64,000 nucleotides of DNA, taken from positions 7,740-71,739 of the forward strand of contig JBKPOR010000004.1 of assembly GCA_046765675.1 (NCBI GenBank), given 5' to 3'. The notes under the pieces are model-generated. The model was not told the origin of the DNA. It searched no databases and was given only the letters and a program-made list of their open reading frames with translations. Below, one piece after another: positions 1-1,053 of this stretch. A program made the translations under genes and the position numbers. Source of the DNA: Pseudomonadota bacterium (lineage in GTDB: Bacteria; Pseudomonadota; Alphaproteobacteria; Sphingomonadales; Sphingomonadaceae). Positions within the stretch are counted from its first letter, which is position 1; each line of letters starts with the position of its first letter.

Positions 1-262
1 CGCCCATTGAGTCCGGAGCGAACGGCCTCGACTCGCTATCACTGGTCCGCTTGCTCCTCAGGCTCGTGCCGAGCGCGTCTTCGAGCCGGACGACCGTCGC
101 CAGAGTGAACGGACGGCTTCCGGCGAGTGCTTTTTCCAGGGTCGAGAGGCTGACCCTGGCCTGGTCGGCGAGCCATTGGCGGGACAGCCTCCGCCGGGCG
201 AGTTCCTCGCGCACGATCAGCGCGACCGCCTGACTTCCCTCGACGCTCAACTCATTGTGCAT
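1..262 (-). CDS. XRE-family helix-turn-helix transcriptional regulator (3' end runs off the window)
   Basis: Hand-translated because the ORF track missed it (no stop in window). ATG at 262 gives MHNELSVEGSQAVALIVREELARRRLSRQWLADQARVSLSTLEKALAGSRPFTLATVVRLEDALGTSL..., a typical Cro/C1-type HTH pattern. Confidence 0.8.
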   Translation of the reverse strand, partial: MHNELSVEGSQAVALIVREELARRRLSRQWLADQARVSLSTLEKALAGSRPFTLATVVRLEDALGTSLRSKRTSDSESRPFAPDSMG

Positions 263-278
263 GGACTCGCCCCTCAGT

Positions 279-345
279 CCGCACATCTCCGCACAATTCC
301 GCACATCTCGTCAATGGAACAGACGCCATGACGCCAGATGTGCGG
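279..345. repeat. Three tandem 10-bp direct repeats (CCGCACATCT / CCGCACAATT / CCGCACATCT) plus one inverted copy; candidate operator array
   Basis: Direct copies at 279-288, 289-298 and 299-308. AGATGTGCGG at 336-345 is the exact reverse complement. A partial inverted GCACAAT lies at 254-260. Confidence 0.75.
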
Positions 346-421
346 GCATTTCCAAGACTTTCCCGTAGCGGCTGAACCCTGTCTCGATCACAGGGCACGT
401 AAGAAATACAGGGGCCCCTCG

Positions 422-526
422 ATGCTCAGCACCAGATTGACGACGGGATTAAGCGGATTGTTCGCGGTCACCACGATTCTGGTCGCCGTTCAGTTCATCA
501 GCGGCGTGCAGGCGTTTCCGCTATGA
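422..526 (+). CDS. Putative 34-aa hydrophobic small protein
   Basis: MLSTRLTTGLSGLFAVTTILVAVQFISGVQAFPL has a single TM-like stretch. AGGGG lies upstream, and the stop overlaps the next ATG (ATGA). Confidence 0.4.
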   Translation: MLSTRLTTGLSGLFAVTTILVAVQFISGVQAFPL

Positions 527-687
527 GCCCGCTCTGGTCAGACAAAGCGCTGGCGCAGGCAGCCTGGACGAAGGCGGTCGCGCGCGGCCTCGTCGACGAG
601 AATGCTGCCGACCATGAGAAGGAATCGACCGGAATCGACCGGATCCGCCGAGTTCCCCGCCCGCGGCTTCACAGCTGGGCGCTCTAG
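523..687 (+). CDS. Putative 54-aa hypothetical protein
   Basis: Hand-translated MSPLWSDKALAQAAWTKAVARGLVDENAADHEKESTGIDRIRRVPRPRLHSWAL. It has an ATGA overlap with the upstream ORF, and its stop overlaps the erpA stop. It is below the ORF-track cut-off. Confidence 0.3.
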   Translation: MSPLWSDKALAQAAWTKAVARGLVDENAADHEKESTGIDRIRRVPRPRLHSWAL

Positions 688-1016
688 ACGCTGAAGCTCG
701 ATCCGCAACCGCAGCCCGACTGGGCGTTGGGATTGGTAACCCGGAACGCAGCGCCGCTCAGATCCTCGACGAAATCAACGGCAGACCCATTCACGAGCTC
801 GAGACTGAGCGGGTCGACAATCAGCTTGACCCCATCCGTTTCGGTTACCGCGTCCTCGGCGTCGGCTCGATCGGCAAGCTCGAACTTATAGCTGAAGCCC
901 GCGCAGCCGCCGCCGTCGACCGCGAGACGAAGGATTGCCGGCTTGTTCTGCCGCTCGGCAATCCACGCGACGCGCCTGGCCGCGCTCTCTGTGAGGCTGA
1001 TCTGGGTGTCGTTCAT
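684..1016 (-). CDS. erpA: Iron-sulfur cluster insertion protein, HesB/IscA/ErpA family
   Basis: LRLAVDGGGCAGFSY and C-terminal CGCGSSF motifs; start taken at MNDTQISLTESAA (ATG 1016). Confidence 0.9.
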   Translation of the reverse strand: MNDTQISLTESAARRVAWIAERQNKPAILRLAVDGGGCAGFSYKFELADRADAEDAVTETDGVKLIVDPLSLELVNGSAVDFVEDLSGAAFRVTNPNAQSGCGCGSSFSV

Positions 1017-1053
1017 GCGACCGAGATAGGAAGTGCGCCGAAGCGCAGCAAGC

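Follow-up and report, generated by a model that had tools for sequence, protein, structure and literature searches.

The window analysed here, a stretch of 64,000 nucleotides from a Sphingomicrobium genome (family Sphingomonadaceae; assembly GCA_046765675.1, contig JBKPOR010000004.1, C4:7740-71739), begins inside the gene of an XRE-family helix-turn-helix (HTH) regulator. Immediately ahead of that gene lie three head-to-tail copies of a 10-bp unit, the candidate operator that is the subject of this report, and beyond them two small divergent open reading frames (ORFs), smORF1 and smORF2. The assembly comprises 2.48 Mb in 244 contigs and is rated 99.7% complete. On the plus strand the units read CCGCACATCT (279-288), CCGCACAATT (289-298) and CCGCACATCT (299-308), with start-to-start steps of exactly 10 and 10 bp, which confirms what an earlier model-generated annotation (the sequence-only reading) had described at 279-308 as three CCGCACA(T/A)(C/T)T units arranged head-to-tail at exact 10-bp spacing. 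On the minus strand, that of the regulator, the region reads TTGACG aga TGTGCGG aat TGTGCGG aga TGTGCGG ACTGAGGGGCGAGTCC ATG. The units there are TGTGCGGaat, TGTGCGGaga and TGTGCGGact (cores at 305-299, 295-289 and 285-279), spanning 16-46 nt before the start codon, so that the array ends 16 nt from the regulator's ATG (262). The elements on this strand are:

2-262, minus strand: regulator gene, first 87 codons, identified by its ORF and translation and continuing past the window's left edge
263-278, minus strand: leader reading ACTGAGGGGCGAGTCC, directly ahead of the ATG, with the Shine-Dalgarno-like GAGGGGCGAG; GGACTCGCCCC is conserved in the genus
279-308, minus strand: candidate proximal operator array of three head-to-tail 10-bp units, identified by exact repeats and conservation in relatives
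309-314, minus strand: TTGACG, a -35-like hexamer 3 nt ahead of the first repeat core, conserved in sequence and position

The array stands alone in this genome. CCGCACAWYT has four matches in the window, all at the array region, against 0.44 expected, and four or more were found in none of 100 shuffles. The genome scan for motif clusters that the sequence-only reading had proposed leads back to the same place: the tandem pattern GCACA-N5-GCACA-N5-GCA occurs once in the whole assembly, at the array, and a regulon search found no second tandem array elsewhere in the assembly. Eight other whole genomes gave a similar picture. The exact pattern TGTGCGG-AAA-TGTGCGG is present in four of the eight, there at the regulator locus only, and the other one-mismatch matches in the eight genomes have G+C-rich spacers and a frequency equal to that of a reversed-pattern control, so that nothing above this control points to a regulon beyond the regulator locus.

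Conservation in relatives was followed outward from the genus. Within Sphingomicrobium, full-length relatives of the regulator with 72-80% identity occur at seven loci in six of the 36 other genomes searched, and one more genome carries a relative at 58%. Every genus locus with upstream sequence shows three units followed on the plus strand by CGTCAA, which is invariant in the genus alignment. In the same family, a homologue (~50-56% identity) is present in 19 of 400 further Sphingomonadaceae genomes and the array is conserved in 15 other genera, the upstream regions reading TTGACG-3 nt-TGTGCGG-3 nt-TGTGCGG-3 nt-TGT(G/C)CGG. When one genome of every prokaryotic species was scanned, at least 589 regulator loci were confirmed. 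The array was read in the best 80 of these, which include Allosphingosinicella, Caulobacter, Phenylobacterium, Brevundimonas, Inquilinus, Brucella pecoris, Methylobacterium, Novosphingobium and Xanthobacteraceae, and it is present there too. For each gene, the 150 nt preceding it were searched for the best-scoring set of three cores spaced 10 bp apart, and up to 5 mismatches over the 21 positions were accepted. By this measure the array is present in 80 of 100 distinct regions, compared with one of 7,973 control windows from the same loci. The consensus of 79 aligned loci is nggTTGACGaaaTGTGCGGAaaTGTGCGGAtaTGTGCGGa, with unit frequencies (%) of T82 G94 T91 G84 C91 G90 G84 A72 W W; TTGAC lies at the identical position in 45 of the 79, and in these 45 the array lies 16-30 nt from the regulator start codon. 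Searching for the motif upstream of orthologues of the HTH protein had been suggested by the sequence-only reading as a check, and the motif is indeed present in relatives as close as the same genus and as distant as Caulobacter, Inquilinus and Methylobacterium.

These comparisons indicate that the orientation and position of the array are conserved before genes of this regulator family across several alphaproteobacterial orders, and the array is almost certainly a functional element of the regulator module. In principle the array could be a recent product of replication slippage, a 10-bp unit copied in tandem and without function: slippage does generate short tandem duplications, and an unrelated exact 10-bp tandem lies at 621-640. 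The comparative data refute this origin, whose probability we regard as negligible, since dozens of genera, with proteins of only ~50% identity, keep the sequence of the units as well as their number, spacing, orientation and position.

The usual genomic partner of the regulator family is a Gram-negative sortase system. Except in the Sphingomicrobium/Allosphingosinicella clade, the gene divergent from the regulator nearly always encodes a protein of 700-800 amino acids matching TIGR03788 (729 and 778 bits), the "marine proteobacterial sortase target protein" with VIT plus vWA. A class GN sortase (TIGR03784; 202.9 bits in Brucella pecoris) comes after the target, and tblastn placed it downstream of the target in 29 loci. 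The TIGR03788 target is divergent from the regulator in 44 of the 101 loci with readable upstream sequence. Among 401 Sphingomonadaceae genomes, 15 carry the target gene, and the regulator is adjacent and divergent in all 15 (hypergeometric P = 2.4e-23 for co-occurrence, given 20 regulator-carrying genomes). The five regulator-carrying genomes that have no target are the window's own, three with a divergent CreD and one other. The CreD-like inner-membrane neighbour was recognised at L030 by Pfam PF06123 (357 bits, 2.4e-106) and at L018 and L029 by similar N-terminal sequence. The repeat array at these three CreD-neighboured loci is shorter and more degenerate.

The TIGR03788 target has no match in the window's own assembly, and the class GN sortase is absent from the window's locus. 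With target and sortase missing, the locus is not a pds sortase locus, although the regulator family is part of one in most lineages. The sequence-only reading had called the locus an uncharacterised regulatory module; this description is supported, but that reading could not reveal the usual sortase partner, which this genome lacks. In Gammaproteobacteria, the sortase system of Shewanella includes the kinase PdsS, the response regulator PdsR and the OmpA-like PdsO (PMC11580497). Relatives of our regulator adjoin the same target (TIGR03788) and the same sortase class (TIGR03784) as this gammaproteobacterial pds system; unlike the Shewanella loci, with their histidine kinase, response regulator and OmpA-like PdsO (PMC11580497), the alphaproteobacterial loci carry a one-component XRE regulator. 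None of PdsS, PdsR and PdsO was seen in the flanks of two annotated alphaproteobacterial loci, for which no systematic search was made.

Methylobacterium separates the parts of the module. There the vWA gene, the sortase gene and the regulator gene follow one another in that order on one strand, and the regulator is still immediately preceded by the three units. Ahead of the vWA gene, at 3 kb from the regulator, lie two TGTGCGG-type units of opposite orientation and a block, GTTTCTCGTGG (the TTTCTCGTGG block). The proximal array thus travels with the regulator, and the unit-like sites and second block travel with the target genes.

The full regulator gene (contig C4:7264-8001) encodes 246 amino acids. 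Its start codon is the minus-strand ATG at 262, and the corresponding CAT is invariant in the genus alignment. The protein consists of an XRE HTH at residues ~15-68, a low-confidence linker of ~20 residues and a beta-barrel domain of ~160 residues. Pfam HTH_31 matches residues 22-67 (27.4 bits against a cut-off of 27, E 4.1e-6) and HTH_3 stays under its cut-off (20.5 bits against 23); this HTH_31 match and the five-helix fold place the protein in the XRE/Cro-CI family. An AlphaFold model of the whole regulator, with a predicted local distance difference test (pLDDT) score of 82.5, shows the five-helix HTH, a linker whose residues 71-77 fall below pLDDT 50, and a beta-rich C-terminal domain. 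Among PDB structures, C.AhdI, ClgR and HipB superpose on the N-terminal domain with a root-mean-square deviation (rmsd) of 1.3-3 Å over ~60 residues, and the domain's best matches are C proteins (1y7y with a template-modelling (TM) score of 0.81, 2b5a and 4i6u).

Beyond the HTH the regulator matches no Pfam family, and the C-terminal 162 amino acids are likewise without a Pfam match in 45 family members. Modelled on its own, this C-terminal domain gave pLDDT 84.1 and a predicted TM score (pTM) of 0.82, forming an antiparallel barrel of ~9 strands plus a terminal helix. The barrel's top PDB matches are all calycins (FABP3, UnaG, L-PGDS, nitrobindin and OlmO), and they are weak (E ≥ 0.016, TM 0.40-0.47, rmsd >5 Å). 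A profile of the domain found 597 representative clusters in 1.84 billion proteins, mostly of ~250 amino acids with the domain C-terminal. Among eight longer barrel proteins scanned, one carries a TIR domain (P0150, 362 amino acids), one an adenylate/guanylate cyclase domain (P0171, 441 amino acids) and six have no Pfam family. Its attachment to different outputs marks the barrel as a module, which fits a role in sensing or assembly. The barrel domain also ends proteins of ~700-740 amino acids, two of which were scanned and have no Pfam family. Several other identities for the regulator were rejected. A LexA or lambda CI type with an S24 peptidase is excluded by the C-terminal domain, which lacks a Pfam match and is predicted to be an antiparallel barrel, with calycins as its best matches; a HigA-type antitoxin is excluded by a TIGR02607 score of 18.3 bits against a cut-off of 47.7; and family profile and structure searches spoke against a cupin and against a C protein. 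No toxin-like ORF was found beside the regulator; adjoining it are smORF1 and smORF2, plus one unrelated convergent gene.

Across the regulator family a segment of the HTH (SxSTLEKAL, FTLAT) is nearly invariant, paralleling the invariant DNA core of the array, and we regard the adjacent XRE protein as probably the binder of the array. The part of the sequence-only reading that tied the array to the HTH protein as its operator is strongly supported by the array keeping the same orientation and position in relatives and staying when gene order changes; the partial copy at 254-260, which that reading had included, is not in the site. An unlinked protein could instead bind the repeats, for example a winged-helix response regulator of the OmpR/PhoB type, with the XRE gene as one of its targets. 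OmpR/PhoB-type regulators typically recognise direct repeats 10-11 bp apart, an arrangement that is uncommon among XRE proteins. The gammaproteobacterial sortase system is, moreover, under the two-component pair PdsS/PdsR (PMC11580497). Yet the array occurs once per genome, solely at the regulator's gene, and follows the XRE gene through sortase-pair, CreD, small-ORF and co-directional neighbourhoods; the loci whose flanks were read contain no conserved second regulator gene, and motif and HTH segment are both near-invariant across widely differing genomes. We therefore consider an unlinked binder very unlikely.

The closest known system is SinR of Bacillus subtilis, an XRE-family repressor with a C-terminal multimerisation domain that recognises a 7-bp motif, GTTCTYT, in tandem and inverted arrangement and represses by promoter occupancy. 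The present regulator differs in having a beta-barrel of ~160 amino acids in place of SinR's short helical hook, in its motif, in its three strictly phased units with a phased distal block, and in belonging to an alphaproteobacterial, sortase-linked family. The MraZ operator of the Escherichia coli dcw cluster offers the nearest operator layout, with three direct repeats of a short G-rich core at 10-bp periodicity over its own promoter, where MraZ autorepresses. The likeness ends with that layout of three direct 10-bp repeats, since MraZ is a swapped-hairpin protein of the SpoVT/AbrB type, unlike the HTH protein here, and no relation in sequence or fold was found. The C proteins (C.AhdI, C.Esp1396I) and lambda Cro/CI share the N-terminal fold and autoregulate through several adjacent sites over their own promoters. 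C proteins, however, consist of ~80 amino acids, lack a sensor domain, occupy palindromic C-boxes as dimers and lie beside restriction-modification genes, of which there are none here; lambda CI has a C-terminal domain different from that of the regulator.

How the array might act follows from its position. If TTGACG is a -35 element, the units would occupy the spacer, the -10 region and the start site. With the units taking up the stretch from the -35 hexamer to the transcript start, an occupied array would then silence the promoter of the regulator itself, and such negative autoregulation is the probable mode of action. The leader between the last core and the start codon, which contains the Shine-Dalgarno-like GAGGGG, is taken as non-coding because relatives carry 14-nt insertions or deletions just beyond GGACTCGCCCC. 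An N-terminal extension of the regulator from a GTG at 304, under which the repeats would be coding, is excluded by these non-triplet 14-nt changes and by conservation at the DNA level. The leader also contains a GANTC site (GACTC, the recognition sequence of the alphaproteobacterial CcrM methylase) at 264-268, and most genus members keep GGACTCG.

The same position, with CGGA recurring every 10 nt at 16-46 nt ahead of the start codon, would allow the repeats to act as RNA, with transcription beginning at a promoter still farther upstream and the GGA units in the leader of the regulator mRNA binding a translational regulator or setting mRNA stability. The adjacent conserved TTGAC, however, suggests that transcription starts within or after the array, and direct repeats give no conserved secondary structure. 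An Rfam search of positions 1-1200 at a permissive threshold found no match at the array. The TGTGCGG-type units of opposite orientation before the Methylobacterium vWA gene likewise fit DNA recognition, and an RNA-level role appears highly improbable. The Rfam candidate at 136-199, a c-di-GMP-II-GAG riboswitch, is at chance level (21 bits against a cut-off of 40, E 0.32) and lies inside the regulator coding region.

Three further features concern the surroundings of the array:

254-260, no strand assigned: partial copy ATTGTGC, outside the element, at regulator codons 2-3 (His-Asn)
336-345, plus strand: inverted unit copy AGATGTGCGG, an exact but semi-conserved copy with its core TGTGCGG at 339-345
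348-371, plus strand: distal conserved block ATTTCC-AAGAC-TTTCCCGTAGCGG, which reads CCGCTACGGGAAAGTCTTGGAAAT on the regulator's strand

Both inverted copies had been named by the sequence-only reading, and both exist in the letters. The one at 336-345 is exact but only semi-conserved: it is kept in the nearest relatives only, with GTGCGG near the same place in ~5 of 14 genus members, and the conserved element near the divergent genes is instead the block at 348-371. Other lineages do have single inverted units 70-130 nt ahead of the ATG, at ~2-3 times background by a rough estimate, and the copy at 336-345 may serve as an auxiliary site. At 254-260, the partial copy is kept in the window and its two nearest relatives only and, given that it encodes His-Asn, is best read as a chance match.

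After the array, the distal block is the best-conserved intergenic stretch in the genus, where it reads ATTTCC-N5-TTTCCCGTGGCGG; the ~35 bp that separate it from CGTCAA show no conservation. Read along the regulator's strand, its sequence is CCACGGGAAAGTCTTGGAAAT, in which GGAAA recurs in register every 10 bp, and the block looks like a set of degenerate units in the same orientation as the array. In Allosphingosinicella it reads CCACGGGAAGGTGCGGCAAATGTCCGC, with recognisable units, and the block was found also in Brevundimonas, Novosphingobium and Inquilinus. By eye, it made no convincing fit to a sigma-54, extracytoplasmic-function (ECF)-type or standard sigma-70 promoter. Distances were measured from the unique TTGAC anchor to the block, allowing at most 2 mismatches in CCACGGGAA, and fell into discrete classes:

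53-56 bp: 22 loci
57-62 or 67-73 bp: 0 loci
63-66 bp: 23 loci
74 bp: 2 loci
79, 80 and 105 bp: 3 loci, likely false matches

Sphingomicrobium stands at 54 bp, Allosphingosinicella, Brevundimonas, Novosphingobium and several other genera at 63-66 bp, and one genus has both 64 and 74 bp. This distribution indicates that the array and the distal block stay in helical phase. Spacing changes by whole turns, with the intervening sequence free to vary, are what is expected if two sites must share one face of the helix. A same-face requirement arises in looping, or where one protein assembly touches both promoters.

The phasing also bears on a reading in which the XRE protein binds the array mainly as an activator, on the model of lambda CI at PRM or of class II activators, so that the distal block and the array would recruit RNA polymerase to the divergent promoter and autorepression would be a side effect or absent. 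The array keeps its phased distance to a block that travels with the target genes, dependence on the face of the helix is typical of activation as well as of looping, and neither promoter has a good -10 element, as is common at activator-dependent promoters. However, the array lies directly downstream of TTGAC in 45 of 79 loci and close to the start codon, the classical position of a repressor, and in Methylobacterium the full array precedes the regulator gene and is 3 kb away from the target promoter. We consider a mainly activating role unlikely.

Taken as a whole, the array is likely a proximal, promoter-overlapping autoregulatory operator of the adjacent regulator, which together with the distal block would also control the divergent genes. 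The regulator would bind the three units on one DNA face in tandem orientation, with one HTH per unit, a geometry that a long linker or the barrel domain would permit. Array and phased distal block would come together in a single protein-DNA complex, through which expression of the divergent unit would be set as well. That unit comprises the VIT-vWA target and the class GN sortase in most lineages and the two small coupled ORFs in this Sphingomicrobium genome. The barrel domain would receive a signal, probably a small hydrophobic or envelope-derived molecule, that alters binding.

Several observations weigh against this interpretation. XRE proteins usually bind inverted repeats as dimers, and the candidate operator is a direct repeat, not the inverted repeat classical for XRE/Cro-CI dimers; three tandem sites demand an unusual oligomer geometry for an XRE protein. 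Caulobacter, Inquilinus and Phenylobacterium have no TTGAC beside the array, and the promoter relation may differ there. No -10 hexamer is recognisable at the regulator promoter in the window, where a sigma-70 promoter scan gave no full consensus site. Alphaproteobacterial sigma-70 promoters, however, are reported to retain the TTG of the -35 element and often to miss the conserved T at -7 (PMC8407463), a pattern that a clear -35 with a poor -10 fits. The spacing classes largely follow clades and so amount to ~three independent changes, each of 10 ± 1 bp. Finally, the distal block in the window, the element nearest to the small ORFs, contains no obvious copy of the unit, which leaves the case for control of the divergent genes by the same protein weaker than that for autoregulation.

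To our knowledge, the only described regulation of Gram-negative sortase systems is the PdsS/PdsR pair of Shewanella, and such systems are poorly understood. Our literature search found no link between XRE regulators and Gram-negative sortases and did not find the motif sequence, and the regulator and its candidate operator are an uncharacterised pair so far. The analysis names a different, dedicated candidate regulator for the alphaproteobacterial version of the sortase system, with a candidate operator defined to the base. It adds an XRE protein that apparently reads tandem repeats and not palindromic sites, and a new modular beta-barrel domain found also on TIR and cyclase proteins. More tentatively, the regulator may be the one-component switch of the alphaproteobacterial sortase system, standing in for PdsS/PdsR: it would bind head-to-tail, loop on the same face to the distal block, one promoter-length away, and so set both divergent promoters, be released by a hydrophobic or envelope-derived ligand of the barrel, and have been re-used in Sphingomicrobium and Allosphingosinicella for a small membrane-associated protein pair.

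The two small genes of this genome, both previously unannotated, are:

422-526, plus strand: smORF1, a 34-amino-acid single-pass membrane peptide, MLSTRLTTGLSGLFAVTTILVAVQFISGVQAFPL, identified from the ORF list and by recurrence in relatives
523-687, plus strand: smORF2, a 54-amino-acid protein, MSPLWSDKALAQAAW...RRVPRPRLHSWAL, identified from the ORF list and by its conserved ends

In Sphingomicrobium and Allosphingosinicella the smORF1 peptide recurs in 19 distinct loci, each time at the corresponding position. Sphingomonas sp. URHD0057 and S. caseinilyticus NSE70-1 have this small-ORF layout too. Its pairwise differences by codon position (1400/885/1861), with the third position the most variable and the second the least, mark it as coding sequence. 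It matches no Pfam or NCBIfam family, and its homologues in a large protein collection form three clusters only, because such small ORFs are rarely reported by gene callers. The stop codon of smORF1 overlaps the start of smORF2 (ATGA), and the two are translationally coupled. In eight distinct loci the ends of smORF2 are conserved (MSPLWSDxALARAA... and ...RRxPxPRLxSxAL), with codon-position differences of 69/65/198; smORF2 has no family match. We conclude that smORF1 and smORF2 are real and probably regulated genes. smORF2 is convergent with an erpA-like gene (684-1022, minus strand; Fe-S_biosyn, 3.2e-19).

The exact 10-bp tandem at 621-640, GGAATCGACC GGAATCGACC, lies in the variable middle of smORF2, where the frame and the conserved C-terminus are kept. 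At one locus of the same genus (L004, genome G028) the small ORFs are absent and the regulator gene abuts the erpA-like gene; the units there are degraded to GCGACTTTTCC GCACGATGCC GTGCGTTTCG, and the regulator protein is intact at 80% identity. Between the distal block and the smORF1 start, immediately ahead of the smORF1 ribosome-binding site, where the window's own sequence has no such structure, many relatives (L006, L007, L036, L041, L043, L047 and L048) carry a short hairpin with compensating changes, for example GCTTC-loop-GAAGC and CTCCGG-loop-CCGGAG (alignment A4, columns ~160-195).

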